The notes beneath the pieces are model-generated. The model was given only the letters and a program-made list of their open reading frames with translations. It ran no database searches and was not told the DNA's origin. A stretch of DNA of 64,000 nt, taken from positions 6,824 through 70,823 of the forward strand of contig PFEU01000008.1 in the NCBI GenBank assembly GCA_002793515.1. The letters are read 5' to 3'. This document shows, in pieces, positions 33,875 through 49,688 of the stretch (its first letter is position 1; each line of letters begins with the position of its first letter). This stretch comes from Candidatus Uhrbacteria bacterium CG10_big_fil_rev_8_21_14_0_10_48_16. GTDB lineage: Bacteria; Patescibacteriota; Patescibacteriia; UBA9934; GWF2-40-263. Position numbers and translations under genes: made by a program.

Positions 33875-33923
33875 ATGGGCTTATTGTGTGCTATTTTCAG
33901 ATACGTGTAAAATACACCCATCT

Positions 33924-34886
33924 ATGACCTCACAAACCATTCTCATCACGGGAGGTGCCGGTTTTATTGGCTCACACCTCGCCAAACGGCTTATTGAAGA
34001 GGGTCATGAGGTTATTATTATTGATAACTTCAATCCCTATTACGATCCTTCTTTAAAGGAGGCTCGTATCTCTCACCTCCTGAAAGATCTTCCTTACACC
34101 TTGTATCGGATCGACCTCGAGGACTTTGAGGCGGTTCAAAAGGTATTTGAAACACACGCCATTGATTTGATTGCCCACCAAGCCGCACAAGCAGGTGTTC
34201 GATATTCGATCGAAAATCCGCTTGTCTATGGACAAAGTAATCTCATAGGAACACTCAACCTCCTGGAGCTTGCAAAGCAATACCATATAAAAGGATTCAT
34301 CCTTGCGTCGAGCTCGTCTGTATACGGAGACGCAACCTCCTTTCCCATCAAAGAAACTGACGAAACAGACAAGCCGATTTCGTTATACGCAGCGACAAAA
34401 AAATCCTGCGAACTTCTTGCCTACTCCTATCACCATCTCTTTGAACTCCCTGTGACATGTCTACGGTACTTCACGGTCTACGGACCTTGGGGACGGCCAG
34501 ACATGGCGATCTTTTCTTTTACCAAATCCGCTTTTGAAGGAACACCGATCGATGTGTATGGCCAAGGAGACATGGCGAGAGACTTCACCTTCATCGACGA
34601 TCTCGTCGATGGCATCGTAAAAGCTCTTGAAAAACAACTCCCATGGGCCGTCCTAAATCTTGGCCGTGGCCAAGCCCAACCACTCATGGACTTTATTACA
34701 TCCATCGAAACGCATTCTGGAAAATCCCTTCAAAAAAACTTTTTAGACATGCAACCTGGTGATGTCCAAAAAACCTGGGCGGATATCACTCAAGCGAAAA
34801 CCCTTCTTTCATTTGAACCCAAGACTTCCATCGATGAGGGAGTTCAATCCTTTGTGACGTGGTACAAAAATTTCTATGACGTCTAA
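33924..34886 (+). CDS. NAD-dependent nucleotide-sugar epimerase (UDP-glucuronate 4-epimerase / CapI-like SDR)
   Basis: ILITGGAGFIGSHLAKRLIEEGHEVIIIDNFNPYYDPSLKEARI, a YxxxK catalytic region (YAATKKSCE), and the overall extended-SDR layout. The ORF-track start at 33888 is GTG and has been trimmed to the ATG at 33924. Confidence 0.8.
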   Translation: MTSQTILITGGAGFIGSHLAKRLIEEGHEVIIIDNFNPYYDPSLKEARISHLLKDLPYTLYRIDLEDFEAVQKVFETHAIDLIAHQAAQAGVRYSIENPLVYGQSNLIGTLNLLELAKQYHIKGFILASSSSVYGDATSFPIKETDETDKPISLYAATKKSCELLAYSYHHLFELPVTCLRYFTVYGPWGRPDMAIFSFTKSAFEGTPIDVYGQGDMARDFTFIDDLVDGIVKALEKQLPWAVLNLGRGQAQPLMDFITSIETHSGKSLQKNFLDMQPGDVQKTWADITQAKTLLSFEPKTSIDEGVQSFVTWYKNFYDV

Positions 34887-36000
34887 AAAGACAACGCGCA
34901 TCGCGGTCTTTTTTACCCATGGAGTCTCCTTAGAATTATGGGAACAGCGTGGAATGTTCTCACGAGAAGTGACCTTCTATGAAGAGCTCGCACGTGAGCT
35001 GGGAGAAGTGTGTTTCTTTACCTATGGTCGTAACGACGCACGGTTTGCTTCCAAACTTGGAACTCAAATTCGCCTCTTTCCAAAACGTCTCCCGGTCCCA
35101 AATCTCCTCTACGCCGTTCTTCTCCCCTTTCTCTACTGGAGGGAACTCTCACAGGTTCAAGCGCTTCGCATACACCAACTCGCCGGAGCGATCCCGGCAG
35201 TCATCACCCATTGGCTCATGTGCAAACCCCTGATTGTACGAGGAGGTTTTCAATGGCTCACCTTTGCTCGCAAACAAGGAGCCTCAAAACTCAAACAACG
35301 ATGTATTTCAATCATCGAACGTCTATCCTATCGGTCTGCAAACGTGATTATTCACACGACACAAGCGGATGCAACATTCGTTCAGAACCGATATGGCATT
35401 CACCCAGAAAAGATCCAGGTGATCCCAAACTATGTCGACACAGAGCTATTCAAACCAATGAACACACAAAAACACCCACAGAGTCTCTGTTATGTAGGAA
35501 GATTCGAAGAACAAAAAAATCTATTCAATCTCTTGGGCGCGATGGAAGGAAGCCAGATTCATCTTGTGCTCTACGGGGACGGATCTCTCAAATCTGAACT
35601 TGAGCATCGGGCAAAACAGTTAAACATCCATGCAAGTTTCATGGGGAGGATCGCAAATGAGGAACTTCCTTATGCCCTCAATACCTGTGAGGCATTTATC
35701 CTTCCTTCGTGGTACGAAGGAAATCCAAAAGTTCTTCTCGAAGCGATGTCCTGCGGGCTTCCCTGTATCGGCACCAACGTGGAAGGTATTGCGAGTTTGA
35801 TCAAAGATGGAGAAACCGGTCTCTTGTGCGACCCATCAAGTCCATCCATCGCACAGGCCATCCATACCCTCTTTGCCGATCAAGACTTCCGAAACCGACT
35901 GGGGTATACCGCACGTACACACATCCTTAAGAGTGTCTCTCTCACACAAGTCATTCAACGTGAATGCCCTTTCTACGATTCTCAACATGAACGCGTATGA
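34876..36000 (+). CDS. Glycosyltransferase family 4 (GT-B, retaining)
   Basis: C-terminal E-x7-E region PSWYEGNPKVLLEAMSCGLPCIGTNVEGIASLIKDGETGLL. ATG overlaps the upstream stop by 11 nt. Confidence 0.8.
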   Translation: MTSKKTTRIAVFFTHGVSLELWEQRGMFSREVTFYEELARELGEVCFFTYGRNDARFASKLGTQIRLFPKRLPVPNLLYAVLLPFLYWRELSQVQALRIHQLAGAIPAVITHWLMCKPLIVRGGFQWLTFARKQGASKLKQRCISIIERLSYRSANVIIHTTQADATFVQNRYGIHPEKIQVIPNYVDTELFKPMNTQKHPQSLCYVGRFEEQKNLFNLLGAMEGSQIHLVLYGDGSLKSELEHRAKQLNIHASFMGRIANEELPYALNTCEAFILPSWYEGNPKVLLEAMSCGLPCIGTNVEGIASLIKDGETGLLCDPSSPSIAQAIHTLFADQDFRNRLGYTARTHILKSVSLTQVIQRECPFYDSQHERV

Positions 36001-36629
36001 GCAAGCTTCTCCTCACCTTCGCCCTAACCCTCCACAGCTTTTCGTATAAACTCGCAAGTCGTCTTGCGATCTTTGCGGAAAACGGCTTGCATCCCAAACA
36101 TCGACTGATGAACTACCACCAGTTTTTTCTCGATCATATTCAGCCAGAAGATCGTGTCCTTGATATTGGATGTGGAAACGGCGCCCTAGCGTTTGATCTT
36201 GCGAAAAAAGCCACGCATGTGACCGGAATCGATCATAACGAAAAAAATCGTTCCACGTGGGAAGAGCGATTCGCTCGCAACAATCTCACCTATCTCGTTG
36301 CAGACGCAACAACATTCTCTCCAATAGAACCCTTCACCGTCATCGTGCTTTCCAATGTCCTTGAGCACATCGAACACCGATCCTCTTTTTTGAAATCCAT
36401 TACCCACCTTGCTCCCCTCTTTCTGATTCGTCTTCCTATGCTCAACCGTGACTGGATGACTCTCTACAAAAAAGAATTAGGACTCGAATACAGACTCGAC
36501 ACGACGCACTTTACCGAGTACACCCTAGAGACGTTTTCACAGGAAATGGCTGAAGCAGGACTCTCTATTCAATCTCTCTCCATTCAATTCGGTGAAATCT
36601 GGGCGGTCATACAATCCCCTCACACGTAG
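35997..36629 (+). CDS. Class I SAM-dependent methyltransferase
   Basis: VLDIGCGNGALAFDLAKKATHVTGIDHNE (motif I) and VIVLSNVLEHIE (motif II/III). The ATGA start overlaps the upstream stop. Confidence 0.7.
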   Translation: MSKLLLTFALTLHSFSYKLASRLAIFAENGLHPKHRLMNYHQFFLDHIQPEDRVLDIGCGNGALAFDLAKKATHVTGIDHNEKNRSTWEERFARNNLTYLVADATTFSPIEPFTVIVLSNVLEHIEHRSSFLKSITHLAPLFLIRLPMLNRDWMTLYKKELGLEYRLDTTHFTEYTLETFSQEMAEAGLSIQSLSIQFGEIWAVIQSPHT

Positions 36630-36632
36630 ATT

Positions 36633-37712
36633 ATGTTTGACTCCGTCAAAACAATGGTTCGAACCCTCGTAAAACGTTTCTTTAGTATTCCTAATCTTTG
36701 GAATAAGAACCACATCCATATTGTGACGGATGGCCATGATTGGGTCATTGGCGAAGTCTCAAAATTTCTTTCAACCGCCCTCTCTCAAAGAACCCTTGCA
36801 CAAGCCTCCATCAGTCCATTCTTCTACTTTCTCTCTGGAAAGGTCATCCATTTCAATTCCATCCCCGTCCCCCAACGTTTTCCAAAAAATAAGGTCATCA
36901 TGACGTGGTACCACATTCCAGAACACGACCCTCGGCTCTCAACACTAAGGGAACTTGAAGCACGTGTGGATCTCATTCATACATCAACACACTCCACAAA
37001 ACAGACCCTCGTTCAGCATGGATTCCCTCCAGAAAAAATTCTTGTGATCCCACAAGGAATTAACCTCACGCTATTCACTCCTGTATCGAAGGACCAGAAG
37101 AAAGAGATTCGAACGGCCCTAGGCATTCCTGAAAAGGCCTTCGTGATTGGTTCGTTTCAAAAAGATGGAGATGGTTGGGGGGAAGGGATGAACCCAAAGC
37201 TCATTAAAGGACCTGACGTGTTTTGTGATGTTGTTGAACAGCTCGCAAAAAAAATAGCGGTTCATGTGCTCTTAAGTGGCCCTTCTCGAGGATACGTCAA
37301 GGATCGACTGACGCGCGCCAACATTCCATTCACACACCAGTATCCAAAAGCATACAAAGACGTAAATCAGCTCTATCACGCCCTTGATGTCTATCTCATC
37401 TCTTCTCGCATAGAAGGAGTGCCGATGGCCCTGCTTGAATCGTGGGCAACAGGCATTCCGCTTGTCAGTACGCGTGTAGGAATGGTTCAAGACGTTGCCA
37501 AGCACGAATCAAACGCTCTTCTTGCGGATGTGGAGGATCGCGATAGGCTTGTTGGGCACATAGAAACCCTCTTTCACGATCATCATGTGAGAGACCATCT
37601 TGCACGCAATGGTCTTGAGTCCGTAAAAGCGTATGATTGGAGTGTCTTAATTGATAGATATTGGAAAGAACTCTACCAACCACTTCTTCGCAAGCCTTCC
37701 GTAAAGCACTAA
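36633..37712 (+). CDS. Glycosyltransferase family 4
   Basis: SSRIEGVPMALLESWATGIPLVSTRVGMVQDVAKHESNALLADVEDRDRL is the GT4 E-x7-E motif region. Confidence 0.75.
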   Translation: MFDSVKTMVRTLVKRFFSIPNLWNKNHIHIVTDGHDWVIGEVSKFLSTALSQRTLAQASISPFFYFLSGKVIHFNSIPVPQRFPKNKVIMTWYHIPEHDPRLSTLRELEARVDLIHTSTHSTKQTLVQHGFPPEKILVIPQGINLTLFTPVSKDQKKEIRTALGIPEKAFVIGSFQKDGDGWGEGMNPKLIKGPDVFCDVVEQLAKKIAVHVLLSGPSRGYVKDRLTRANIPFTHQYPKAYKDVNQLYHALDVYLISSRIEGVPMALLESWATGIPLVSTRVGMVQDVAKHESNALLADVEDRDRLVGHIETLFHDHHVRDHLARNGLESVKAYDWSVLIDRYWKELYQPLLRKPSVKH

Positions 37713-37732
37713 CGTTTCCGCATGTTGCGCAT

Positions 37733-38782
37733 ATGAAAATAGCGATTGGAATGCACCTTCAAACAGGGTCGTTCGGAGGAGGAAATCAGTTTGCAACTCT
37801 TCTCACAGACCATCTTCGAAAACTCGGGCATGAGGTCTATTTCGATCTGACCCCATCTGATCTGGATCTTATTCTTATGACCGACCCTCGCACCACGTTG
37901 AAGTCGGTTGCCTTTGGTCCTGTTGAAATCATGCGGTACATTCGGGACGTGCATCCTTCTACTCTACTTGTGCATCGCATAAACGAATGTGATGAACGCA
38001 AAGGAACCCGTGCTCTTAATCGCATCCTTGCTGTCAGCAATGAGATCATGGATCACACGGTTTTTATTTCTTCGTGGCTTGAAAAGCTCCACTGCCAACA
38101 ACATCCGTTTACAACATCCCGCTCTGTTATTTACAACGGAGCAGATCCTTCCGTTTTTACCTATCAAAAAAAGGAACTTCCAACCACAAGAAAAATAAAG
38201 CTTGTCACGCACCACTGGAGTGCAAACTGGAATAAAGGATGGGATGTTTACATGCATCTTGATCATCTCCTTTCAGAAACATCTCTCGGAGATCAGATAG
38301 AATTTACCTACATTGGAAACGCTCCAAAACTCCCTTTCAAAAAGATTCGTGTGGTTCCTCCACGCGCTGGAAAAGAACTCGCCCAAGCCCTACAAGAACA
38401 CGATCTCTATATCACCGCATCGTTGAATGAGCCCGCAGGTATGCATCACATTGAAGCTGCATCTTGCGGACTTCCACTTCTGTATCGCACCAGCGGTGCC
38501 CTTCCGGAATATGGCGCATCATTTGGTGTGGCCTTTCACGGACCAGACGATGTTGAGGCGCGACTGCATGAACTCCTTCACACGTACGACCGATTCACAC
38601 ACGCCCTTGAATCTTACCCCTACACAAGTGAATTGATGTGTCGCTCGTATACAGAATTGTTTCACTCACTCATCTCACGCAAAGAATCGATCCTTGCAGA
38701 ACGCAAGACAAACCACTTTTCTCTCGCTCGACAAATCAAGAAACACCTCCATCTCATCTGGCTTTCTTTATTGAATCGATAA
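37733..38782 (+). CDS. Glycosyltransferase (GT-B fold, GT4-like)
   Basis: MKIAIGMHLQTGSFGGGNQFATLLTDHL and …ASLNEPAGMHHIEAASCGLPLLYRTSGALPEYG. The ORF-track start at 37661 is TTG; the ATG is at 37733. Confidence 0.6.
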   Translation: MKIAIGMHLQTGSFGGGNQFATLLTDHLRKLGHEVYFDLTPSDLDLILMTDPRTTLKSVAFGPVEIMRYIRDVHPSTLLVHRINECDERKGTRALNRILAVSNEIMDHTVFISSWLEKLHCQQHPFTTSRSVIYNGADPSVFTYQKKELPTTRKIKLVTHHWSANWNKGWDVYMHLDHLLSETSLGDQIEFTYIGNAPKLPFKKIRVVPPRAGKELAQALQEHDLYITASLNEPAGMHHIEAASCGLPLLYRTSGALPEYGASFGVAFHGPDDVEARLHELLHTYDRFTHALESYPYTSELMCRSYTELFHSLISRKESILAERKTNHFSLARQIKKHLHLIWLSLLNR

Positions 38783-38794
38783 GCTCCTCCCCTT

Positions 38795-39439
38795 ATGGAT
38801 CACATGCAACCGTCACAATATTTTTCCATGAAATATCTCTCGCTTCAGCGATGGAACTCTTATTGGTATCAATTATTTGAGACAACCCAGTGTCCGAATG
38901 TCAAAACCATTCTTGAGGTAGGGATTGGGAATACCATCTGCACGTCCGTTCTTCGAAATATGGGCTACACCGTCAAGACCCTAGATGCAGACCCAACAAC
39001 TCAGGCGGATTACGTAGCAGACATCCGAACAATTCAACAGACCGTTCATGAAACATTCGATCTCACCCTCTGTTGTCAAACACTCGAACATATTCCGTAC
39101 GAAGACGTCCCGGGTGTTCTCCGATCTTTTCACAAGATCACAAATACCTGGCTCATTGTCACCCTTCCCTACACTTCACTCGGCACATTTGCTCCACGCC
39201 TATTTCTCAAGCTCCTCCCGTTCATGAAACCCTTCAAATGGGTCCGCGTCTTTCCTTTTTTTCCAAAAGAACATCCATCGAAACTCCCTGGAGGGCATTA
39301 CTGGGAAATCGGAAAAAAAGGATATGCTCTCAAGACGATTCTTCAGCTATTCGACACGTGCGGATGGGATATCGTGAAGCACTACTCGCTCTTTGAGAAT
39401 CCTTACCACTACATGCTCGTGTGTAAAAAACGAACATAG
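38795..39439 (+). CDS. Class I SAM-dependent methyltransferase
   Basis: ILEVGIGNTICTSVLRNMGYTVKTLDADP is a glycine-rich SAM loop. 214 aa. Confidence 0.6.
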   Translation: MDHMQPSQYFSMKYLSLQRWNSYWYQLFETTQCPNVKTILEVGIGNTICTSVLRNMGYTVKTLDADPTTQADYVADIRTIQQTVHETFDLTLCCQTLEHIPYEDVPGVLRSFHKITNTWLIVTLPYTSLGTFAPRLFLKLLPFMKPFKWVRVFPFFPKEHPSKLPGGHYWEIGKKGYALKTILQLFDTCGWDIVKHYSLFENPYHYMLVCKKRT

Positions 39440-39467
39440 ACAAACAGACTCACAAAAGTTCTTGTAT

Positions 39468-39494: not shown

Positions 39495-39519
39495 ATTTAA
39501 ACTAATATAATAGGGTTTT

Positions 39520-40335
39520 ATGGCTGAATACGTGATCAAACCCAAACGCCCCATCGGTCTTCATCTCAAAGAAATATGGCGATTTCGTGAGTTATTCTTA
39601 GCACTCACCGTCCGAGACATGAAGGTTCGTTATAAGCAAACGGCCATTGGCGTCCTCTGGGCTGTATTTCAACCGTTCATTCTCATGGTTGTCTTTACGA
39701 TTTTCTTTGGTCGCATCGCACAAATAAGCACCAATGGTGTTCCCTACCCGATCTTTGTCTATAGTGGCTTGTTGTTCTGGAACTATTTTTCAAATGCCTT
39801 AAGCGCCGCAAGTGGAAGCATGGTCGCCAACCAAGCGATCATTCAGAAAATCTATTTTCCTCGTATCATTTTGCCCACAGCTTCTGTTGTGGTGTTTTTG
39901 TTAGATTTTATTTTTTCATCCATCATCTTTGCTGGCCTCCTGATTTACTATCACGTCACACCAAACATCACCGGCCTCTTATTATTAGTTCCCATGCTAC
40001 TCATTACCACCCTCACGCTTCTTGGCATCGGATTATTTTTTTCTGCTGTGAACGTCAAGTACCGTGATGTCCGCTATGTCCTTCCATTCTTTATTCAACT
40101 CCTTCTTTTTGTGACTCCGGTCATCTACCCAGCTACGATTTTAGGAGAATATAAATGGTTGCTCTACCTCAATCCCATGTCTGGAGTCATTGATGTCTTC
40201 CGAAGTACGTTTTTGTCACTTGGTTCTATTTCATGGCCCCTATTTGGAAGTTCGATTCTTGTAAGCATCATCTTTTTTCTTGTTGGTCTTGCCTACTTCC
40301 AAAAAACAGAACGCTATTTCGCTGATCTTATTTAG
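39520..40335 (+). CDS. wzm: ABC-2 type polysaccharide/O-antigen exporter permease (Wzm/TagG family)
   Basis: 271 aa, 6 TM. N-terminal cytoplasmic helix plus ABC2_membrane features (RDMKVRYKQTAIGVLWAVFQP…). Confidence 0.85.
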   Translation: MAEYVIKPKRPIGLHLKEIWRFRELFLALTVRDMKVRYKQTAIGVLWAVFQPFILMVVFTIFFGRIAQISTNGVPYPIFVYSGLLFWNYFSNALSAASGSMVANQAIIQKIYFPRIILPTASVVVFLLDFIFSSIIFAGLLIYYHVTPNITGLLLLVPMLLITTLTLLGIGLFFSAVNVKYRDVRYVLPFFIQLLLFVTPVIYPATILGEYKWLLYLNPMSGVIDVFRSTFLSLGSISWPLFGSSILVSIIFFLVGLAYFQKTERYFADLI

Positions 40336-40336
40336 T

Positions 40337-41596
40337 ATGGATCCTATCATTCGCGTCGAACATCTCGGAAAAAAATATCGGATCAAACATACGCAAAAAG
40401 GCTATGTTGCTCTGCGTGACGTGGTAGCAAACCTCTTTTCTTGGCGTTACTGGTTTCGTTCATCAAAAAAAGAACAGGAAGATTTTTGGGCTCTCCAAGA
40501 CGTGAACTTTGAAGTCCAAAAGGGCGAAGTCCTTGGAATTATTGGAGCAAACGGTGCTGGAAAATCGACCCTCCTAAAAATCTTGTCGAGCATCACCCCA
40601 CCTACGAACGGGGAAGTTCACATGAATGGACGAGTCATCAGTCTTTTGGAAGTAGGCACAGGGTTCCATCCAGAGTTAACGGGGCGTGAAAATATTTATC
40701 TCAACGGAGCCATCCTCGGAATGACACGCAAAGAAATTGAACAGAAATTCGATGCCATTGTTGCTTTCTCAGGAGTTGAAACGTTTTTAGATACTCCGGT
40801 AAAACGATTTAGTAGCGGAATGCAGGTTCGATTAGCATTTGCGGTTGCGGCACATTTAGAACCAGATATTTTGATCATCGACGAAGTTCTTGCCGTCGGT
40901 GATGCATCGTTTCAAAAAAAGTGTTTAGGAAAAATGGAGGAGGTCACAAAACAAGATGGCCGAACGATTTTATTTGTGAGCCACAACATGGATGCCATTG
41001 CGAAACTCTGCCAACGTTCGTTACTGCTTGATCATGGAAAGGTGATCGCAGACGGGCCAACAGATGACGTCATTGCGCGCTACCTAAACAACCACGAACA
41101 AACGCGAGCAGAGGTCACACTCACCCCTCCAGAGACTCTCGATATTGCCATCCGTTCTATCGCGATTAAGAATGACCGTGGAGCACTCTCAAATCGACTC
41201 GAGACAGGAAAACCCTTTACGATCGAAATTGAATACGAACTCAAAAAAGACGCGCATGAGGTCTATGCAGGGGTTGCGTTTATTGATCTAAAGACACAAA
41301 TTTCTGTCTTGGACACACTTGATATCGATCAAAATAAGGACCACTATCCCTTGCGAAAAAAGGGAATGTATCGTTCACTATTCACGTTTCAAGAAAATCC
41401 GTTTAATCACGGAAGATATAAGCTCTTTGTGCATATCGGATCTTTCCCTGCCACACAAACCACTCTTCATCTATCTGACGGCGATCTCACCATAACCTTC
41501 GTTTCAGGAGAAACCTTTGCGACAGATGTTCTCGATGGCACACGAAACTCAACCATGCTCCTCAACATTCCCAGTGAGATTATAAAAATTGGTTAA
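40337..41596 (+). CDS. wzt: Polysaccharide ABC exporter ATP-binding protein (Wzt/TagH) with a C-terminal carbohydrate-binding (Wzt_C-like) extension
   Basis: Walker A GANGAGKST, ABC signature FSSGMQVRLAFAVA, Walker B ILIIDEVLAVGD. Then a C-terminal extension of about 170 aa (…TLTPPETLDIAIRSIAIKNDRGA…YKLFVHIGSF…TITFVSGETFATDV) predicted to be a beta-sandwich. The ORF-track start at 40280 is TTG; the ATG is at 40337. Confidence 0.85.
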   Translation: MDPIIRVEHLGKKYRIKHTQKGYVALRDVVANLFSWRYWFRSSKKEQEDFWALQDVNFEVQKGEVLGIIGANGAGKSTLLKILSSITPPTNGEVHMNGRVISLLEVGTGFHPELTGRENIYLNGAILGMTRKEIEQKFDAIVAFSGVETFLDTPVKRFSSGMQVRLAFAVAAHLEPDILIIDEVLAVGDASFQKKCLGKMEEVTKQDGRTILFVSHNMDAIAKLCQRSLLLDHGKVIADGPTDDVIARYLNNHEQTRAEVTLTPPETLDIAIRSIAIKNDRGALSNRLETGKPFTIEIEYELKKDAHEVYAGVAFIDLKTQISVLDTLDIDQNKDHYPLRKKGMYRSLFTFQENPFNHGRYKLFVHIGSFPATQTTLHLSDGDLTITFVSGETFATDVLDGTRNSTMLLNIPSEIIKIG

Positions 41597-41601
41597 CGAC
41601 T

Positions 41602-42651
41602 ATGTTTGAATTCGGAACATCAGAACACCTTGGAGATATTTCCTATTTTTATGGAAAGCCAATCGATATCACAAAACTAAAAGTAGATGTTCTTTCCGAC
41701 GTTCGTAAAAAACTACAAAATGTTGGAGACCAAATCAAAACGCTACAAACCACCTATCCAGCTGTCCAACAAACTAGCTGTTACATTTGCAAAGACTCTG
41801 CTTCTGTTCCCTGTGCGGAAGTTTATGGATTTACCTATGTACGCTGTGCAACTTGTGGACACACGTATACAACGGAACGTTATTCGGAACAGGACCTCTT
41901 AGATTTCTATAAAAACAGCACGTTCTATTCAACACAAACGTACGGAAACCCAGCGAGTCATCAGTACCGGATCGATCATGTGGCACGTCCAAAAATGGAG
42001 TTCCTGGAGTATTTTACAAAAGGAAAAGGTCGATTGCTGGATGGAGGTTCAGGAATTGGGGATATTCCTCTCGTGGCAAAACAATCCGGTTGGGATGCGA
42101 CCGGGATTGAAGTGAGCAAAGATTCTGTCCAGTTTGGAACAGAGCAATTAGGGGCACCTCTCCTCCAAGGATCTTTCATGGAACATCTTGACCTCATAGA
42201 AGAACGTGCACTAGACGCCGTTACGCTAATCGGGTTTCTAGAACACACCATTGATCCAATCCATTTCCTCCAGCAAGTTTATACAAAGATAAAACCTGGT
42301 GGACACATCATGATTCAAGTTCCAAGTGCAGATAGTTTTGCTTCAATGATTCAAGCATCCTTTCCGCAAAACGTTTTTCGACACATGGTTCCCATGGATC
42401 ACTACCAACTCTTTTCAAAGGATTCTTTAGATCGAGCCCTAGAACAAACAGGATATACGATTCGTGGATATTGGTTTCATGGATTGGATCTCTATGAACT
42501 CATGAATCACCTATCCATCATGCATCCGGAAAGTGCCGGAACCGATTCACCACTTTTTCAAACATTCTTAGAGCACATGGACAAGCTTCAACTCGTTATG
42601 GATCAAGCACAGAAGTCAGATCGCATTATCGTCGTTGCACAAAAAATATAA
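41602..42651 (+). CDS. SAM-dependent methyltransferase with N-terminal CxxC…CxxC zinc-ribbon (Methyltransf_13-like)
   Basis: SCYICKDSASVPCAEVYGFTYVRCATCGHTY, then LLDGGSGIGDIPLVAKQSGWDATGIEVS and IKPGGHIMIQVP methyltransferase motifs. Directly follows wzt. Confidence 0.75.
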   Translation: MFEFGTSEHLGDISYFYGKPIDITKLKVDVLSDVRKKLQNVGDQIKTLQTTYPAVQQTSCYICKDSASVPCAEVYGFTYVRCATCGHTYTTERYSEQDLLDFYKNSTFYSTQTYGNPASHQYRIDHVARPKMEFLEYFTKGKGRLLDGGSGIGDIPLVAKQSGWDATGIEVSKDSVQFGTEQLGAPLLQGSFMEHLDLIEERALDAVTLIGFLEHTIDPIHFLQQVYTKIKPGGHIMIQVPSADSFASMIQASFPQNVFRHMVPMDHYQLFSKDSLDRALEQTGYTIRGYWFHGLDLYELMNHLSIMHPESAGTDSPLFQTFLEHMDKLQLVMDQAQKSDRIIVVAQKI

Positions 42652-42666
42652 CATCACCCTATACGT

Positions 42667-43725
42667 ATGCCTCACACACCCATTAAAATATTTGGAAAAA
42701 CGATTGGAGAAGGATATCCAACCTTTTTTATTGCAGAAATAGGATTGAACCACAATGGTTCCATGGACATCGCAAAACAGCTCATAGACGTAGCGGTCAA
42801 CGCCGGATGTGACGCCGTGAAGTTTCAAAAACGAGACATTGAGAGCTTGTCTGTTCGTTCTTTTCTTGATGCTCCTGACACGCGATTCCCTGAGTTTGGC
42901 TCCACCTATCGAGAGGTTCGTGAATTTGTTGAGTTCTCAGAAGAAGAGTTCACCGAACTAAAAAGGTATGCCCAAGAAAAAGAGATTCCATTTTTCGTCA
43001 CCCCTTTTGACATTCCCTCCGCGCAAATGCTCGCACGCATCGGGGTCGACGCCTATAAAAGTGCAAGTCATAATCTGACGCACATTCCTTTGTTGAAGCA
43101 TCTCATCGCCCAACAAAAGCCCATGATTGTTTCCACAGGAATGGCCATGCTTGAAGAGCTAGATCTTGCCGTGAATCTCCTTAAAGAATCCAACATCCCA
43201 TTTGTTTTACTCCATTGCGTCTCTTCCTACCCTACCGCACCTGAACTCATCAATCTCAAAACCATCGACTTTTTGCGAGAGCGCTACCAGGTTCCTGTTG
43301 GCTACTCGGGTCATGAAATGTTGGAAACCGAAAGCCTCCCAACCCTTTCAGCTGTCGCACGAGGTGCCTGTGTCGTAGAGCGTCACATCACTCTTGATCA
43401 CCACATGGTTGGGTTCGATCACAAAATTTCATTAACCCCCAATGAACTCCAGAAACTCATGGGGCAAATTCGTTCGATCGACAAAATGATGGGAACAGGC
43501 TTAAAAACGTTGTTACCGGAAGAACGAATCAAACGCGATCAACAACGTGTTTCCCTTGTTTCCTCTCGCAAAATCTCCGCAGGAGAAATCATCCAACCTG
43601 ATATGGTCTGTTTCAAAGGTCCTGGAACCGGTTTTGCCTGTTATGACCTGGATCAGATTGTGGGGAAATCAGCTATCACAGATATCGACGAAGACACCCT
43701 ATTCCAGGCTGAAATGTTTAACTGA
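42667..43725 (+). CDS. neuB: Nonulosonic acid (sialic-acid-like) synthase, NeuB/PseI/LegI family
   Basis: IGEGYPTFFIAEIGLNHNGSMDIAKQLIDVAVNAGCDAVKFQKR, a TIM-barrel NeuB signature, plus a C-terminal SAF domain (…GPGTGFACYDLDQIVGKSAITDIDEDTLFQAEMF). Confidence 0.9.
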   Translation: MPHTPIKIFGKTIGEGYPTFFIAEIGLNHNGSMDIAKQLIDVAVNAGCDAVKFQKRDIESLSVRSFLDAPDTRFPEFGSTYREVREFVEFSEEEFTELKRYAQEKEIPFFVTPFDIPSAQMLARIGVDAYKSASHNLTHIPLLKHLIAQQKPMIVSTGMAMLEELDLAVNLLKESNIPFVLLHCVSSYPTAPELINLKTIDFLRERYQVPVGYSGHEMLETESLPTLSAVARGACVVERHITLDHHMVGFDHKISLTPNELQKLMGQIRSIDKMMGTGLKTLLPEERIKRDQQRVSLVSSRKISAGEIIQPDMVCFKGPGTGFACYDLDQIVGKSAITDIDEDTLFQAEMFN

Positions 43726-43734: not shown

Positions 43735-44487
43735 ATGAATGTCACAAAAAGGCAATTTAGCCCGGGAGTCGTTGAAAAGGTAGATGCAATCCGCCAAGAG
43801 ATGGTATCGCGATATGAAATGCCCCTTGAGCGCACTACACACGTACACCTGCAGTGCGAGAAAATTTTATCAACACAACAGAAACCAGGTGTCGTCGTGC
43901 AATGCGGAGTATGGAAAGGAGCGAGCCTTTTTGCTGCCGCCCTCTTCTGTCAGAATGAAAAAATTCAAAAGCAGATATTCGGATTTGATACATTCACAGG
44001 ATTTCCCAATAAACAGATTGACCCGCACGACCACCCCAGCTATTTCAAGACTCTTTTGGACAGCAACCTTATAACCAAAGAACACTATGAAAAAGCTGCA
44101 ATCCGGACCAAGAACTTCACTGACCTTGCGCATCTTACCAATGAGCATTTTTTAGATATCGGAGAAGTTTTTGATCGAGTCGCAGAATTTGAAAACATCA
44201 AACTTATTAAGGGTACGTTTGCAGAAACCCTGCCACATTTCCAGGAACCAATCGCTGTTCTCTATATTGACTGCGATATCTACCAAGGATATAAGGAAAT
44301 TTTGAATAATCTCTATGACCTGGTGGTCGATGAAGGAGCGATAGTTTTTGATGAATATTACTCACTGAAATATCCGGGCGCCCGTGCAGCGGTGAATGAT
44401 TTTTTTCAAGACAAAAAAGGTCATTTTGAGGTATACACCACCGACGATCGTTTTGAGCGCTGGTGCTTTATAAAGAGCAGTAAATAA
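43735..44487 (+). CDS. TylF/MycF-family sugar O-methyltransferase
   Basis: GVVVQCGVWKGASLFAAALF…LYIDCDIYQGYKEILNNLYDLVVDEGAIVFDEY is the macrocin-O-methyltransferase family pattern. Confidence 0.7.
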   Translation: MNVTKRQFSPGVVEKVDAIRQEMVSRYEMPLERTTHVHLQCEKILSTQQKPGVVVQCGVWKGASLFAAALFCQNEKIQKQIFGFDTFTGFPNKQIDPHDHPSYFKTLLDSNLITKEHYEKAAIRTKNFTDLAHLTNEHFLDIGEVFDRVAEFENIKLIKGTFAETLPHFQEPIAVLYIDCDIYQGYKEILNNLYDLVVDEGAIVFDEYYSLKYPGARAAVNDFFQDKKGHFEVYTTDDRFERWCFIKSSK

Positions 44488-44529: not shown

Positions 44530-45252
44530 ATGAACACGTCAGATTCGGGTCCCCGCATTTTAGCGATTACGCTCGCACGTGGTGGAAGTAAAAGTGTGCC
44601 AAGAAAAAATATTCGCCCGCTTCTTGGGAAACCGATGATTGCGTATACCATCGAAGAAGCGCTGAAGTCGAAATTCATCACACACTACGTCGTCTCAACA
44701 GAAGATAAAGAGATTGCAGACGTAGCAAAAACATACGGAGCGGATGTTCCTTTTTTGCGTCCAGAGGAACTCGCCACAGACACAAGTGCGTCAAAACCCT
44801 GCTTGCAACATGCAACAGCCTATATGGAAGATCAATTGGGTCGCCCCTTTGATTACGTTGTGGAACTCATGGCAACGAACCCACTAAAAACCGTAGAAGA
44901 TATTGACACCGCATTAGAAAAGTTAATCTCAACAGGAGCTGACTCTGTCATTGGTGTCATTCAAATTCACGATCAGCATCCATTACGTGTGAAAAAGATC
45001 GTCGATGACAAACTTGTCGACTTTTGTTTACCAGAACCCAATGAGGCGCGACGGCAAGATCTACAACCTGATGCATTTTTGCGAAATGGTTCTATCTACG
45101 CGATGAAACGTGATGTGCTCATGATTCAAGATCGACGATATGGAACAGAAAACTCGCGCCCGTATATTTTCAGTCCTGAACGCTCGGTCAATGTGGATTC
45201 ATTAGAAGACTGGTATCTTGCAGAGATGCGCCTAAAAAATCGGCAATCGTAA
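44530..45252 (+). CDS. neuA: CMP-nonulosonic acid synthetase (acylneuraminate cytidylyltransferase family, NeuA/PseF/LegF-like)
   Basis: ILAITLARGGSKSVPRKNIRPLLGKPMIAYTIEEALKS is the CTP_transf_3 N-terminal signature. Confidence 0.85.
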   Translation: MNTSDSGPRILAITLARGGSKSVPRKNIRPLLGKPMIAYTIEEALKSKFITHYVVSTEDKEIADVAKTYGADVPFLRPEELATDTSASKPCLQHATAYMEDQLGRPFDYVVELMATNPLKTVEDIDTALEKLISTGADSVIGVIQIHDQHPLRVKKIVDDKLVDFCLPEPNEARRQDLQPDAFLRNGSIYAMKRDVLMIQDRRYGTENSRPYIFSPERSVNVDSLEDWYLAEMRLKNRQS

Positions 45253-45257: not shown

Positions 45258-46199
45258 ATGAACATCCTTTGTCTCACACCCATTAAGCACCTTTCGGGGG
45301 TGTTTGAACTCCTTTCTTCATACGGATCTGTTGACTACCAACCGGAATTCACGAAGGAACAGCTGATGGACTACCTGAAAGCGCATCAGGATGTTGATGC
45401 GCTCTTTGTAAATCCAAATAAGCAAAACTATAAACTTGACGCAGAAATTCTTGCTGGAAGTTCCGTCACATTGATCAATACCGCGTCAACTGGACTCAAC
45501 CATATTGATGTTGCTTGGTGTAAAAGACAAAACATTAACATCCTTTCGTTAACCGAAGACCACGAGCTCATCAAACGTCTTCCTTCTACATCAGAACTTG
45601 CCTTCGGTTTAATGCTTTCACTCCTTCGTCATATTCCCTCTTCCTTTGACGCGGTGAAGCGTGGCGCATGGGACTACGAACCCTTTATCGGTCATCAAAT
45701 TGAAGGTCTTACCGCCGGAATCGTTGGTTATGGACGCCTCGGAACATTCATGGCAAAGTACTGTCACGCGTTTGGGATGCGGGTCCTCGTCACAGATCCG
45801 TACAATCCTGTGTACGGATTCGATCGAGTCTCCCTAGAGGAACTCGCGCAAGAATCTGATGTCATCTCCTTACATGTTCACGTCACAGATGAAACCAGAC
45901 ACATGATCAACGCCTCCTTTATTTCAGCCACACAGAAAAGTCCGTATCTGATTAATACGTCACGAGGAGAAATTGTCGATGAACAAGCCGTGCTTGAGGG
46001 GTTGCAATCAGGAAAACTCCGAGGCTACGGAACGGATGTGATCGAAGACGAATTTGGAAATCGTGCGGAAAGTCCTATTATCCAAGCGGCACATTCTGAT
46101 CTGAATGTGCTCATCACCCCCCATACCGGTGGAATGACCTGGGAAGGTCAACAACGCGCCTACACATGGGCCGTCGAAAAGTTTAATCCTCTTTCTTGA
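45258..46199 (+). CDS. D-isomer-specific 2-hydroxyacid dehydrogenase family NAD-binding oxidoreductase
   Basis: GIVGYGRLGTFMAKYCHAFGMRVLVTDPY Rossmann motif, and the catalytic region …NTSRGEIVDEQAVLEGLQSGKLRGYGTDV…HTGG. Confidence 0.8.
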   Translation: MNILCLTPIKHLSGVFELLSSYGSVDYQPEFTKEQLMDYLKAHQDVDALFVNPNKQNYKLDAEILAGSSVTLINTASTGLNHIDVAWCKRQNINILSLTEDHELIKRLPSTSELAFGLMLSLLRHIPSSFDAVKRGAWDYEPFIGHQIEGLTAGIVGYGRLGTFMAKYCHAFGMRVLVTDPYNPVYGFDRVSLEELAQESDVISLHVHVTDETRHMINASFISATQKSPYLINTSRGEIVDEQAVLEGLQSGKLRGYGTDVIEDEFGNRAESPIIQAAHSDLNVLITPHTGGMTWEGQQRAYTWAVEKFNPLS

Positions 46200-46208: not shown

Positions 46209-46853
46209 ATGAGTAAGCTTTCCGTGATTATTCGATGTCGAGATGAAGAACGCTGGATTGGGCACGCCATCCAATCGGTATTAGATTTTGTTGACGATCC
46301 AGAAATTTTAGTCATCAACAACAAGTCAAAAGATGATTCGCTGTTGATCGTTCGACAATTCGCAGGATTCGATACGGTCCGCGTCTTAGACATTGATGAT
46401 TATTCCCCTGGAAAGGCTCTTAACTTGGGCGTCCAAGAAGCAACGAGTGACCTCATTCTCGTTCTCTCAGCACATTGTGTCTTGAAAAAATTCGATCTCC
46501 CAAACATCGCGAAAGCCCTCTCTACACACAAAGCAGTTTTTGGAAAACAACATCCAATCTACCAAGGACGAAAGATCACTCCACGATATCTCTGGGCAAA
46601 CTTTCATGACAGAGAAGAAGAGAATGCGTATTCAAAACTCGAGGACCGACTCTTCTTACATAATGGGATGTGTGTGTACCGGCGCGACATCCTTCTCGAA
46701 CATCCTTTTGACGAACAGCTTGCCGGAAAAGAAGATCGCTACTGGGCGCGCGATATCGTAAAAGCGGGATATACCTATCTCTACAGCCCATCCCTCATGG
46801 AATGTGATCACCATTGGACCACAGACGGAAATACGTGGAAAGGAATAGGGTAA
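46209..46853 (+). CDS. Glycosyltransferase family 2-like (short, 214 aa)
   Basis: LSVIIRCRDEERWIGHAIQSVLDFV…ILVINNKSKDDSLLIVRQF matches the GT-A N-terminal nucleotide-binding pattern. The DxD equivalent is LDIDDYSPG. Confidence 0.6.
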   Translation: MSKLSVIIRCRDEERWIGHAIQSVLDFVDDPEILVINNKSKDDSLLIVRQFAGFDTVRVLDIDDYSPGKALNLGVQEATSDLILVLSAHCVLKKFDLPNIAKALSTHKAVFGKQHPIYQGRKITPRYLWANFHDREEENAYSKLEDRLFLHNGMCVYRRDILLEHPFDEQLAGKEDRYWARDIVKAGYTYLYSPSLMECDHHWTTDGNTWKGIG

Positions 46854-46858
46854 TTTCT

Positions 46859-47698
46859 ATGCGCGACGATATTTGTGTATTGCTGACTTCAGCAATCGAA
46901 GTCAAAAATAAACATCTCGTGAAGCGCCATGACACCGCGACACGTCTTGAGGATTACAAACGCGCCCTACGTAGCTGGCTCACAAAACAAACGCACGTTC
47001 AACACATCGTCTTTGTCGATAACTCTGGATATCCTCTGGATACACTCAAGCACATCGCTGAGACAGAAAACGTTCATGGAAAACACGTAGAATTCCTTTC
47101 CTTCCACTATGACACCACCGGTGATAGCGATATTAGCTTAGGCGAAATCGCTATTTTGGATTATGCCCTCAATCACTCACAAACTCTGAAGAACACATCC
47201 TATTTTATCAAGTGTACGGGAAGAGTATTTGTTGAGAATATCGATCATATTGTCCAAGATCTCCCTGAAACATTTCATGCCGTCGCTCGGTTTTCTGAAA
47301 ACCTAAGTTACATTGATAGCGTGATCATGATTTTCGAGACGCACATGTACCGCGAAGACATGCACCCTCTGATTGCACAAACCATGAAACAGCCAAATGG
47401 AAAAACAGATTTTGAACGCGCCTACGCCAAAGTCCTTCATGAACTCTTAGCGAAAGACTACCAATGGTTTCCGTTCAGTCACGAACCTATTTTCTCAGGA
47501 ATGTCTGGAACAAAAAATCAGTCGTATAGAAAAAAATACGGTCGATTCCAATCTCTCTGGTACTCCGTCATCTCACATATGTTTTACAAACGTTATAGAA
47601 CAAGCTGGGGAAAAAGCTCAGGTCGCGAACATTTGCTCGTCCGTTGGAACATTCAGCCTGAACGAGGAACTTGCTCATCGAATAAAGATTCTCTCTAA
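46859..47698 (+). CDS. Hypothetical protein (possible uncharacterised glycosyltransferase-like)
   Basis: 279 aa from the ATG at 46859; the ORF-track start at 46814 is TTG. Has …HIVFVDNSGYPLD… but no motif I can assign confidently. Confidence 0.45.
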   Translation: MRDDICVLLTSAIEVKNKHLVKRHDTATRLEDYKRALRSWLTKQTHVQHIVFVDNSGYPLDTLKHIAETENVHGKHVEFLSFHYDTTGDSDISLGEIAILDYALNHSQTLKNTSYFIKCTGRVFVENIDHIVQDLPETFHAVARFSENLSYIDSVIMIFETHMYREDMHPLIAQTMKQPNGKTDFERAYAKVLHELLAKDYQWFPFSHEPIFSGMSGTKNQSYRKKYGRFQSLWYSVISHMFYKRYRTSWGKSSGREHLLVRWNIQPERGTCSSNKDSL

Positions 47699-47706: not shown

Positions 47707-48708
47707 ATGTCAGAACACTCAAAAAAACGTGCACTCATTACCGGAATTACCGGACAAGATGGAAGCTATCTTGCTGAATTTTTATTGGAACAGGGATATG
47801 AAGTGCATGGCATCATGCGCCGTTCCTCCACCTTTAACACCTGGCGCATCGAACATCTCTACGGGAGTGAGGACTTCTCTCATCCAAAAAATGACTTCCA
47901 TCTCCATTACGGAGATCTGACCGATGCCATGAGCATTGCTGCCATCATCAAGCAGGTTCAGCCAGATGAAATCTATAATCTTGCTGCCATGAGCCATGTG
48001 CGTGTGTCATTCGATGTTCCAAAATTTACCCTTGAAACAAATACGCTTGGAGCCCTAAACATTTTGGAATACATCCGTCACCACGCACCACACATCAAGT
48101 ATTATCAAGCTTCAAGTTCCGAAATGTTTGGAGCGACAACGGATGCTCCTCCCTTTAATGAGCATACGCGATTCATGCCACAGAGCCCGTACGGCATTTC
48201 AAAACTAGCCTCGTTTCATCTCACAAGACATTACCGAAACAGCTATGGTCTCTTTGCAGTAAATGGAATTCTCTTCAATCACGAAAGTCCTCGCCGTGGA
48301 GAAACGTTTGTGACTCGCAAAATTACTCGTGCCGTTGCCTCCATTCTTGCAGGAGAAATGGATACCCTCTACATGGGGAATCTTGATGCCGTCCGAGACT
48401 GGGGACATTCAAAAGATTATGTCCGAGCGATTCACCTGATGCTCCAACAAGAGGCTCCTGATGAATATGTCGTCGCAACCGGAGAAGCTCACTCCATCAA
48501 AGAAGCTCTGCAATATTGTTTTGAGGAGGCGGGTCTTGATTGGACACAGTATGTAAAGATTGATCCAAAGTACTTCCGCCCAAGCGAAGTCCCCTATCTC
48601 CAAGGAGACTCACGCAAGATTCGAGCGATTGGGTGGGAACCGGAATACAACTGGAAAACACTTCTTAAAGAAATGCTCGAGGAAGATATTAGACGTTCAC
48701 AAAAATAG
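47707..48708 (+). CDS. gmd: GDP-mannose 4,6-dehydratase
   Basis: KRALITGITGQDGSYLAEFLLEQGYEVHGIMRRSSTFNTWRIEHLY…, YxxxK (YGISKLAS), and the full Gmd architecture. Confidence 0.95.
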   Translation: MSEHSKKRALITGITGQDGSYLAEFLLEQGYEVHGIMRRSSTFNTWRIEHLYGSEDFSHPKNDFHLHYGDLTDAMSIAAIIKQVQPDEIYNLAAMSHVRVSFDVPKFTLETNTLGALNILEYIRHHAPHIKYYQASSSEMFGATTDAPPFNEHTRFMPQSPYGISKLASFHLTRHYRNSYGLFAVNGILFNHESPRRGETFVTRKITRAVASILAGEMDTLYMGNLDAVRDWGHSKDYVRAIHLMLQQEAPDEYVVATGEAHSIKEALQYCFEEAGLDWTQYVKIDPKYFRPSEVPYLQGDSRKIRAIGWEPEYNWKTLLKEMLEEDIRRSQK

Positions 48709-48711
48709 TGT

Positions 48712-49098
48712 ATGAAATCTATTGAAAAAGACGGAGTCCTCATCGCGATTCACTTTGACGGAACATTTACCGAAGGTACCCAACCGCAAACAGACGAAGG
48801 ATTTCCCCTCCAGGTTCTTTCCTTGAAGCACCCAAAGGGAAAAATTCTTTTGGCGCATGCTCACACCCCACGTGATCGAACCACACACGAACTCATGGAA
48901 TGTCTCGTCGTGTTATCTGGGCGCATCCTTGCCAACATTTTTCATGAAAACGAACTCTTTGAATCAATCGAGATGGGACCTAAGGAAGCACTGATGCTTG
49001 TCCGCGGTGGAGTCGGGTATGAAATACTAGAAGACGCGGAAATGATGGAGTTTAAAAATGGCCCCTACCTGGAAGACAAATCGCTCATCAACGCATAA
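48712..49098 (+). CDS. WxcM/FdtA-like cupin (putative NDP-4-keto-6-deoxyhexose 3,4-ketoisomerase or epimerase)
   Basis: 128 aa. LAHAHTPRDRTTHELMECLVVLSGRI fits the FdtA-type cupin HxH…E…CL.G pattern. Gene position is immediately 3' of gmd. Confidence 0.5.
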   Translation: MKSIEKDGVLIAIHFDGTFTEGTQPQTDEGFPLQVLSLKHPKGKILLAHAHTPRDRTTHELMECLVVLSGRILANIFHENELFESIEMGPKEALMLVRGGVGYEILEDAEMMEFKNGPYLEDKSLINA

Positions 49099-49099
49099 T

Positions 49100-49675: not shown

Positions 49676-49688
49676 GATCGACATCTCT

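Follow-up and report, generated by a model that had tools for sequence, protein, structure and literature searches.

The current analysis concerns a Wzm-Wzt glycan exporter encoded by Candidatus Uhrbacteria bacterium CG10_big_fil_rev_8_21_14_0_10_48_16, a member of the candidate phyla radiation (CPR), within a 64,000-nucleotide stretch of contig PFEU01000008.1 (positions 6,824 to 70,823 of the forward strand), referred to here as the window. In this locus, the hinge and carbohydrate-binding domain of the transporter ATPase Wzt are encoded together with a zinc-ribbon methyltransferase and a set of sugar-acid genes in a single cassette, which has been replaced as a unit in a sibling strain. It seems possible that the Wzt domain reads a cytidine monophosphate (CMP)-activated ulosonic-acid cap as its export signal and that the zinc-ribbon enzyme serves as an optional cap-tailoring methyltransferase; we would assign this reading, which draws upon sequence comparisons and analogies to characterized systems, an even chance of being correct. 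The original prediction for this locus had assigned the role of terminator to the methyltransferase itself, as a kinase-less analogue of WbdD. On balance, a system resembling those that use Kdo (3-deoxy-D-manno-octulosonic acid) as a cap, operating in a monoderm CPR bacterium, is better supported than a WbdD-like terminator, with the chemistry being deduced in its entirety.

The Wzt binding domain and its exchange between strains

The carbohydrate-binding extension that had been predicted for Wzt is confirmed: roughly 170 residues extend past the nucleotide-binding domain, and residues 268-387 match the Wzt_C hidden Markov model (Pfam PF14524) above its curated gathering score (38.7 vs. 30.4 bits, E 1.2e-9). 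Likewise, wzm, the methyltransferase gene and a hairpin upstream of wzm are all present where they had been placed. The wzt reading frame starts at the ATG at 40337, one base past the wzm stop codon, and its product is 100% identical to NCBI entry PJE76900.1, from a Candidatus Uhrbacteria metagenome-assembled genome. A start at the TTG at 40280, corresponding to the longest open reading frame (ORF), is unsupported when set against this match.

According to a PDB sequence search, the best solved homologue is full-length Wzt of Aquifex aeolicus (8dku/7k2t, E 6e-75), whose alignment (residues 45-366) with the window protein passes the hinge and covers most of the carbohydrate-binding domain. A profile built from the Wzt C-terminal domain alone matched the Aquifex domain weakly (E 0.11) and did not reach those of Escherichia coli O9a or Raoultella, and a protein database search with the C-terminal 170 residues alone returned no match, probably as a consequence of a word-index limit. 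In the Aquifex transporter, which reads 3-O-methyl-mannose/rhamnose, the binding domain and Tyr233 of the hinge helix hold the cap between them (PMC9445017). Y249 of the window Wzt aligns with this tyrosine, whereas the alignable cap-contacting residues are not conserved, with the methyl-pocket residue L300 replaced by Ala and the sugar-contacting residues I299 and N313 replaced by Val and Thr, respectively. The clade of binding domains to which the window protein belongs instead exhibits an invariant D-x-D-x-N motif peculiar to it, together with two arginines that are likewise invariant (window residues ~329-403 in the clade alignment). This set is kept in the sibling allele described below and is absent from the Aquifex cap pocket. 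Speculatively, these residues might engage a metal or a carboxylate.

A classic finding, taken here from its citation in PMC2943079, is that substrate specificity is set by Wzt-C alone. In the sibling strain, represented by locus L023, this part of the transporter has been exchanged, together with the hinge. The L023 DNA is 96.2% identical to window positions 38988-41039 and 94.9% identical to positions 46209-50320, while the intervening window cassette (41040-46208, 5.17 kb) is replaced by 3.09 kb. The left match ends at 41039, inside wzt, such that Wzt residues 1-227 are 98% identical between the two strains, whereas the hinge and binding domain (residues 228-419) share just ~37% identity (35% for the binding domain). 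The left breakpoint lies where the nucleotide-binding domain gives way to the hinge. Besides the hinge and binding domain, the replaced tract of the window encodes the zinc-ribbon methyltransferase, NeuB, a TylF methyltransferase, a cytidylyltransferase and a dehydrogenase. Its counterpart in L023 encodes a binding domain that has diverged (Wzt_C 22.7 bits), a dehydrogenase that is 63% identical, a short divergent CTP_transf_3 protein and, in place of NeuB, an aldolase of the 3-deoxy-D-arabino-heptulosonate 7-phosphate (DAHP) synthase type (TIGR01361, 272 bits), with weaker matches to KDO8P synthase models; methyltransferases are missing from the L023 tract. No such change affects Wzm (98%), the family 2 glycosyltransferase (GT2) downstream of the cassette (96%), the adjoining orphan protein unk294 (97%) or the downstream sugar genes (92-98%). 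Since Y249, the equivalent of Aquifex Tyr233, lies inside the swapped segment, the exchanged unit comprises a complete reader plus the genes defining the sugar acid and its methylation. The proposed functional tie of the binding domain to the genes that follow wzt thus stands in the form of a shared exchangeable cassette that includes the methyltransferase, and falls where it cast that enzyme as a WbdD-like terminator. A joint swap is what would be expected if the cassette encodes the cap, even if it is no proof of this.

Genomic partners of the binding domain and the methyltransferase

Contexts of the zinc-ribbon methyltransferase were gathered from an assembly index, one genome per species and JGI metagenomes, and were annotated with the window proteins, which gave 14 independent loci with some flanking sequence. 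Among these, NeuB and/or a PseF-like cytidylyltransferase is located nearby in 12, usually together with a 2-hydroxyacid dehydrogenase and a GT2 enzyme. A wzt gene is found near the methyltransferase in only five (the window, L001, L004, L018 and L002/3). For example, L009 (from a Chlorobiales metagenome-assembled genome, MAG) and L019 (an unassigned metagenome contig) both encode NeuB, GT2, cytidylyltransferase, dehydrogenase and methyltransferase in order, and the 7-10 kb flanking the module on each side contain no wzt. In L010 (Chisholmbacteria) and L011 (Kapaibacterium), the methyltransferase lies 4-8 kb from weaker NeuB/cytidylyltransferase homologues (27-46% identity), again without wzt.

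The reciprocal comparison employed 120 Wzt relatives, mostly from Patescibacteria among the closest, which were split into their nucleotide-binding and C-terminal parts. The former are all 65-93% identical and the latter 13-61%. Six relatives with C-termini ranking among the most similar to that of the window (33-61% identity) were inspected, namely P0012, P0013, P0017, P0022, P0021/L004 and P0011. The resulting binding-domain clade is composed of eight independent loci (window/L008, L001, L004, L013, L014, L023, L024/25 and L026; C-terminus profile 227-263 bits), and in all eight a phosphoenolpyruvate (PEP)-dependent aldolase, a cytidylyltransferase, a 2-hydroxyacid dehydrogenase and unk294 are encoded immediately after wzt. 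A close zinc-ribbon methyltransferase is encoded in three of the eight and is absent from L013, L014, L023, L024 and L026. A paralogue of 297-301 aa carrying the same CxxC...CxxC ribbon (21-23% identical) is found in L004, beside the close enzyme, as well as in L013 and L026, whereas L014, L023 and L024 have neither. Downstream of the control Wzt P0054, which has a C-terminal domain of another kind (22% identity, 46.7 bits), lie GT1, Methyltransf_23, GT9 and GT2 genes and no aldolase module. The anticipated co-conservation of the methyltransferase with wzt was therefore not borne out, either from the perspective of the enzyme (wzt in 5 of 14 loci) or from that of the transporter (enzyme missing from 5 of 8). 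Judging from these gene neighborhoods, the partner of the binding-domain clade is the sugar-acid module, with the methyltransferase as a facultative part. The co-conservation of the ulosonic-acid module with the clade makes a sugar acid a more likely cap than a lone O-methyl group.

The methyltransferase itself is an S-adenosylmethionine (SAM)-dependent class I enzyme from a rare family, with nine matches among 5.8 billion clusters. Its cysteines C60, C63, C82 and C85 (CxxC...CxxC) are invariant in the seven-member family as well as in the distant paralogues. In an AlphaFold model (mean predicted local distance difference test score, pLDDT, 78; predicted template modelling score, pTM, 0.81), they sit in a confidently predicted small beta domain resembling a zinc ribbon, which packs onto the Rossmann fold. 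WbdD is absent both from the PDB phmmer matches at E<=0.01, all of which are generic methyltransferases, and from the Foldseek top 50, in which generic class I enzymes rank first. The model is compact, its longest helices consisting of 18 and 22 residues (H34-51 and H117-138), and it contains no coiled-coil ruler. Membership in the WbdD kind is accordingly unsupported by either sequence or predicted structure, a result that concerns the kind of enzyme and not whether it could terminate chains. Within the Foldseek top 50, the only PDB matches extending beyond 320 columns, and hence covering the zinc domain, are KijD1, TcaB9 and MtmC. These nucleoside diphosphate (NDP)-sugar C3-methyltransferases similarly carry a zinc domain with four cysteines at the N-terminus, ahead of a class I methyltransferase fold, but the template modelling (TM) score is only ~0.5. 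A TcaB9-type C-methyltransferase identity was rejected, as Methyltransf_13 and Methyltransf_14 are not matched and the window protein lacks the C-terminal domain that such enzymes have. Separately, a homologue in a Gammaproteobacteria MAG (L012, 3281-4157) is split across three reading frames and is probably a pseudogene or an assembly error.

Within the sugar-acid module, the window NeuB is, on the basis of its sequence, a genuine NeuB-family enzyme (NeuB_NnaB 309 bits, which is under the equivalog cut-off), with the sialic acid synthases 6ncs and 1xuu being closest in the PDB. The cytidylyltransferase is 61-83% identical across related NeuB modules, with the L023 version being divergent (34% over 90 aa). 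The gene content for supplying a CMP-activated 3-deoxy-ulosonic acid, i.e. NeuB and CTP_transf_3, is thus present after wzt, as far as genes alone can tell. A literature text search combining NeuB, 2-hydroxyacid dehydrogenase and cytidylyltransferase retrieved nothing relevant and no precedent for the dehydrogenase step. Several fusions occur in related loci: CTP_transf_3 and 2-Hacid_dh form one polypeptide in L026 (14560-16245), GT2 is fused to a TylF methyltransferase in L013 (14851-16320) and L014 (14183-15556), and L024 (14685-16235) joins unk294 to a methyltransferase. Such fusions would tie the cytidylyltransferase/dehydrogenase and GT2/TylF activities into one pathway.

Three proteins encoded past the cassette are pertinent to the question of a transferase. 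The GT2 enzyme adjoins NeuB in L001, L004, L006, L009, L018, L019 and L026, making it the most consistent transferase neighbor across phyla. The profile of unk294 yields matches of 400-436 bits in L001, L004, L013, L014, L023, L024 and L026, and hence in every Wzt-linked module of the clade. The third, unk638, belongs to a family having 52 relatives among 1.84 billion representatives, with homologues near the NeuB module in L001, L004 and L024, and it exhibits an invariant K499-S-H501-P502...D505 motif. Neither unk294 nor unk638 has a significant PDB sequence or Pfam match, whether searched as a single sequence or as a profile. For unk638, the AlphaFold model (pLDDT 92.3, pTM 0.92) adopts a GT-B fold, and UDP-GlcNAc 2-epimerases, TagF and ordinary GT-B enzymes lead the Foldseek ranking. 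A likeness to beta-Kdo transferases, suggested by the SHP motif, finds no support, as WbbB and KpsC are absent from its Foldseek top 50, which leaves room for a role as a GT-B transferase. We also considered a NeuC-like 2-epimerase feeding NeuB, for which the modelled fold provides a TM score of 0.5-0.6 at ~11% identity, no better than for generic GT-B proteins.

Candidate export signals

In the favored model, the Bac_transf enzyme would start a polyprenol-linked chain, which the GT4 and GT2 enzymes and several methyltransferases would then build in the cytoplasm. NeuB would make the ulosonic acid, the 2-hydroxyacid dehydrogenase would tailor it, and the cytidylyltransferase would activate it as a CMP-sugar, with the zinc-ribbon and TylF methyltransferases presumably methylating the sugar acid or a precursor. 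A transferase, for which GT2, unk294 and unk638 are candidates, would attach this cap. By reading the non-reducing end, the Wzt hinge and Wzt_C module would gate export through Wzm-Wzt, after which the Wzy_C-tetratricopeptide repeat (TPR) enzyme would transfer the chain to a surface acceptor. The reader and the cap-synthesis genes would constitute one 5.2-kb cassette exchanged between strains as a unit.

There is precedent for several of these features. In Klebsiella pneumoniae O12 and O4, Kdo caps are read by Wzt binding modules (PMC11231755), and the O12/Raoultella terrigena (WbbB, GT99) and O4 (GT137) systems resemble the present one in combining Wzm-Wzt and Wzt_C with a CMP-activated 3-deoxy-ulosonic acid as end signal, which is here proposed. 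They differ in that the sugar acid here has a cassette to itself, with an aldolase of either the NeuB or the DAHP-synthase type, a cytidylyltransferase, a 2-hydroxyacid dehydrogenase and as many as two methyltransferases, the window cluster revealed neither a GT99- or GT107-like transferase nor a coiled-coil ruler, the host is a monoderm CPR bacterium without lipopolysaccharide (LPS), and the terminal position of the sugar is a proposal here. E. coli O8/O9a WbdD (PMC3482155) and the stand-alone O-methyltransferase of Pseudomonas syringae TET (PMC7820976) likewise place a SAM methyltransferase beside wzm-wzt, with Wzt carrying a binding module. The window enzyme, however, has an N-terminal zinc ribbon, has no kinase, coiled coil or detectable WbdD homology, and tracks NeuB across genomes instead of wzt. 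Also similar in layout are the S-layer glycan (slg) clusters of Geobacillus stearothermophilus and Paenibacillus alvei, which are likewise monoderm and encode a WsaP-like Bac_transf initiator, overlapping wzm-wzt genes followed by cap-related genes, and a Wzy_C oligosaccharyltransferase plus a TPR protein (fused in the window), and for which a methylated cap has been proposed (PMC2943079). The Geobacillus cap is 2-O-methyl-rhamnose, produced by the methyltransferase domain of the polymerase WsaE, and there is no ulosonic-acid module in that system (PMC2943079).

Were the zinc-ribbon methyltransferase itself the chain terminator, in the manner of WbdD of E. coli O8, WsaE of Geobacillus or the stand-alone P. 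syringae TET enzyme, it would place an O-methyl group upon the last repeat-unit sugar for recognition by Wzt_C, and the NeuB-derived sugar would be a component of the repeat unit or an adaptor. We regard this as improbable. Its gene does directly follow wzt, both in the window and independently in L002/L003, and is part of the cassette exchanged together with the binding domain; moreover, the wzm-wzt-methyltransferase arrangement is established in other systems (PMC7820976, PMC2943079), and the closest solved Wzt recognizes a 3-O-methylated sugar (PMC9445017). However, binding domains 39-61% identical to that of the window are found in L013, L014, L024 and L026, where the enzyme is absent, as it is from L023, with L013 and L026 having just the distant zinc-ribbon paralogue. 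It also accompanies NeuB modules in loci devoid of wzt (L009 and L019, and with weaker homologues L010 and L011), it lacks both WbdD similarity and a coiled coil, and the three Aquifex cap contacts are changed in Wzt. Furthermore, the operon encodes at least seven methyltransferases, so a methyl group on its own would hardly mark the chain end uniquely. A different possibility, to which we would also attach a rather small likelihood, is that the module makes a sugar acid of the repeat unit or of a side branch, with Wzt_C reading some other terminal feature or the polymer more generally and the joint exchange being a by-product of adjacency. Nonulosonic acids are indeed chain components of ABC-dependent systems, such as the legionaminic-acid O-antigen of Legionella (PMC3766260), the module is encoded without wzt in several genomes, and no terminating transferase or ruler was identified in the cluster. 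Three observations oppose such a scenario: Wzm, GT2 and unk294 persist virtually unchanged while the aldolase family switches between NeuB and the DAHP-synthase type, the left breakpoint falls at the nucleotide-binding domain/hinge junction, and the module directly follows wzt at every locus of the binding-domain clade. Unchanged transferases despite an aldolase switch are hard to square with a backbone residue, which would need matching polymerizing transferases.

A number of points nonetheless weigh against an ulosonic-acid cap. Adjacency might by itself explain why the binding domain and the module were exchanged together. Whereas the gene content, domain identities, synteny and cassette breakpoints are observed, the terminal position of the sugar acid is inferred, as are its binding by the Wzt domain, the order of the enzymatic steps and the acceptor. 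No recognized CMP-ulosonic-acid transferase was found among the cluster proteins. GT2 enzymes are not known to use CMP-sugars, and the dehydrogenase has no obvious part in cap synthesis. Two loci fit poorly as well: the L002/L003 methyltransferase comes after wzt, yet NeuB is missing from the 3 kb that the contig extends upstream, and L018 encodes the module and the zinc-ribbon methyltransferase alongside a very different binding domain (15 bits). A crude home-made heptad scan, which excludes obvious long rulers only, revealed no coiled coil in any cluster protein, whereas a coiled-coil ruler is present in all characterized terminators (PMC11231755). Lastly, the 3-O-methyl sugar bound by the closest solved domain, that of Aquifex, would fit the view of a methyl cap.

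A more far-reaching version of the ulosonic-acid cap model is also conceivable, which we find doubtful but worth stating: the window may represent an undescribed class of CPR cap systems, in which the self-sufficient cassette for a methylated ulosonic acid (derived from NeuB or, in the other allele, from a DAHP/KDO8P synthase) is physically joined to its own reader, so that both can be swapped through one recombination. The route would include the 2-hydroxyacid dehydrogenase step as well as the orphan protein families, and the backbone machinery would be kept during the swap.

Operon layout, the upstream hairpin and implications

The glycan genes are listed in Table 1. The plus-strand ORFs are tightly packed from ~33.9 to 59.5 kb, indicative of a long operon, and the region of 32.5-59.5 kb is best explained as an ATP-binding cassette (ABC) transporter-dependent glycan assembly operon. 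As CPR bacteria are placed within a monoderm clade (bioRxiv 10.1101/2021.05.31.446380), an LPS O-antigen is not expected, and the O-antigen setting originally envisaged for the exporter is the wrong frame. By its gene content, the pathway is of the S-layer-glycan-like ABC type: a complete slg-type set (Bac_transf initiator, Wzm/Wzt, Wzy_C oligosaccharyltransferase and TPR partner) is encoded in one cluster of a monoderm host. The upstream part of the operon (33888..39439) has homologues in the same order in L013, L014 and L024. The operon encodes at least seven methyltransferases along with GDP-mannose dehydratase and DegT aminotransferase genes, and its polymer is probably a 6-deoxy/amino-sugar glycan with heavy methylation.

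Table 1. Features of the glycan assembly locus, in window coordinates
Feature	Position	Strand	Evidence or remark
Initiating phosphoglycosyl transferase (WbaP/WsaP-like)	32567..33874	-	Divergently transcribed; Pfam Bac_transf 224 bits
Epimerase/dehydratase	33888-34886	+	Pfam
GT4	34876-36000	+	Pfam
Methyltransferase	35997-36629	+	Pfam
GT4	36633-37712	+	Pfam
GT4-like	37661-38782	+	Pfam
Methyltransferase	38795-39439	+	Pfam
Perfect 12-bp inverted repeat, 7-nt loop	39466..39496	+	RNA hairpin or DNA palindrome
wzm, ABC-2 permease, 271 aa	39520-40335	+	ABC2_membrane 68 bits
wzt, 419 aa	40337-41596	+	ABC_tran 89 bits and Wzt_C PF14524
wzt nucleotide-binding domain, residues 1-227	40337..41017	+	ABC_tran 89 bits; outside exchanged cassette
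wzt hinge helix and Wzt_C module, residues 228-419	41018..41596	+	Wzt_C match; cassette left end
Zinc-ribbon class I SAM methyltransferase, 349 aa	41602-42651	+	Methyltransf_23 77 bits, residues 127-287
NeuB-family PEP-dependent ulosonic-acid synthase	42667..43725	+	NeuB 246 bits and SAF
TylF-type O-methyltransferase	43735..44487	+	TylF 80 bits
CMP-ulosonic acid synthetase-like cytidylyltransferase	44530..45252	+	CTP_transf_3 90 bits; PseF 163 bits, below cut-off
D-2-hydroxyacid dehydrogenase	45258..46199	+	2-Hacid_dh_C 166 bits; cassette right end
GT2 glycosyltransferase	46209..46853	+	Glycos_transf_2 71 bits; first gene past cassette
unk294, orphan protein	46814..47698	+	Likely start near 46856; no Pfam/PDB match
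6-deoxy/amino-sugar genes: GDP-mannose 4,6-dehydratase, WbuC-like cupin, two methyltransferases, DegT aminotransferase	47707..51541	+	Pfam, NCBIfam
unk638, orphan GT-B-fold protein, 638 aa	51538..53454	+	AlphaFold and Foldseek
GT1-like	53429-54559	+	Pfam
Weak prenyltransferase-toroid-like protein	54581-55684	+	Pfam
GT2	55668-56528	+	Pfam
Wzy_C and TPR ligase/oligosaccharyltransferase-like, fused	56458-58428	+	Pfam
GT4	58430-59533	+	Pfam

The predicted hairpin upstream of wzm exists as a perfect 12-bp stem that is unique within the window and sits in the only sizeable (80-nt) intergenic gap of the operon. The 86-nt stretch 39440-39525 has a minimum free energy of -22.3 kcal/mol (z = -4.07), and none of 200 shuffles folds as well. 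A TATAAT sequence lies 9 nt 3' of the stem, followed by the wzm start. The hairpin is unchanged in L008, and its pairing is kept in L023 by a compensatory G-C to A-T change (39468/39494); all three sequences agree over the 3' flank up to and including the start codon, while the 36 nt upstream are variable. In many Patescibacteria loci, a small HTH_17 gene is located upstream of wzm, either immediately (L004 4291-4536, L026 8940-9185 and L027 3042-3290) or removed by one or two genes (L013 8452-8706 and L014 7148-7387), whereas the window has no HTH_17 gene and has the palindrome there.

The original prediction suggested that this element may set the stoichiometry of wzm, wzt and the methyltransferase. 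That it is a transcriptional attenuator tuning their dosage is an idea that we can entertain only tentatively; alternatively, it could be a DNA operator or promoter element of an internal promoter. The stability, uniqueness and perfect pairing of the stem, the compensatory change among three strains and the location in the sole sizeable gap of a tightly packed operon all speak for a role of this kind, as do the nearby TATAAT and the HTH_17 genes at the equivalent position of related loci. However, the stem is not a canonical intrinsic terminator, since no T-run or U-tract follows it and a terminator scan passes it over. In addition, the comparison is confined to three closely related sequences, and the symmetric stem change preserves the DNA palindrome as well, making RNA and DNA roles inseparable. 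The element may be an RNA attenuator or stabilizer, or else a palindromic operator belonging to an internal promoter.

Several further observations pertain to the surroundings of the cluster. The 54581-55684 protein (367 aa), with its weak prenyltransferase alpha-alpha-toroid match, has homologues in the L013 and L024 clusters that are 38-42% identical. A second Wzy_C (O-antigen-ligase-like) protein is encoded at 1992-3260 (- strand), distant from the cluster, which brings the number of such enzymes in the genome to at least two. Directly upstream of the glycan operon, a 2124-aa ORF without a Pfam match (22730-29104, - strand) is adjoined by an 835-aa TPR protein (19603-22110) and by three cohesin/dockerin/TSP3-repeat proteins (29267-32472), all of which are possible surface proteins or glycosylation targets. 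A 766-aa ORF (15962-18262, + strand) containing FG-GAP repeats and MopE-type metal-binding motifs lies in a stretch of 62% G+C, compared to ~45% for the rest of the window, suggestive of foreign DNA or else of a repeat protein with a strong bias. Finally, the window encodes a tRNA-Ile with a UAU anticodon (61861-61937, - strand). Most bacteria decode AUA using a lysidine-modified CAU tRNA, and the UAU tRNA may be a lineage trait of this CPR genome.

Cap-dependent export, in which the Wzt binding module reads a terminal tag, is the quality-control step of ABC-dependent glycan assembly, and has so far been documented in a small number of Proteobacteria, in Aquifex and in some Firmicutes. A kinase-less analogue of WbdD alone would be an ordinary addition to a known arrangement. 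If the ulosonic-acid cap model is correct, the logic of cap reading would extend to the CPR/Patescibacteria, whose surfaces are essentially unstudied, and the repertoire of caps would widen beyond methyl, methyl-phosphate and Kdo to include dedicated methylated NeuB-type sugar acids. The orphan proteins unk294 and unk638, the latter with its invariant SHP motif, and the dehydrogenase step are concrete biochemical targets in this regard. Furthermore, a cap and its reader would form a single exchangeable unit, providing a compact route to surface variation and, were the system to represent a class of its own, a one-step switch of surface antigen in monoderm ultra-small bacteria. Such variation would be relevant to both phage and host recognition in episymbiotic bacteria.

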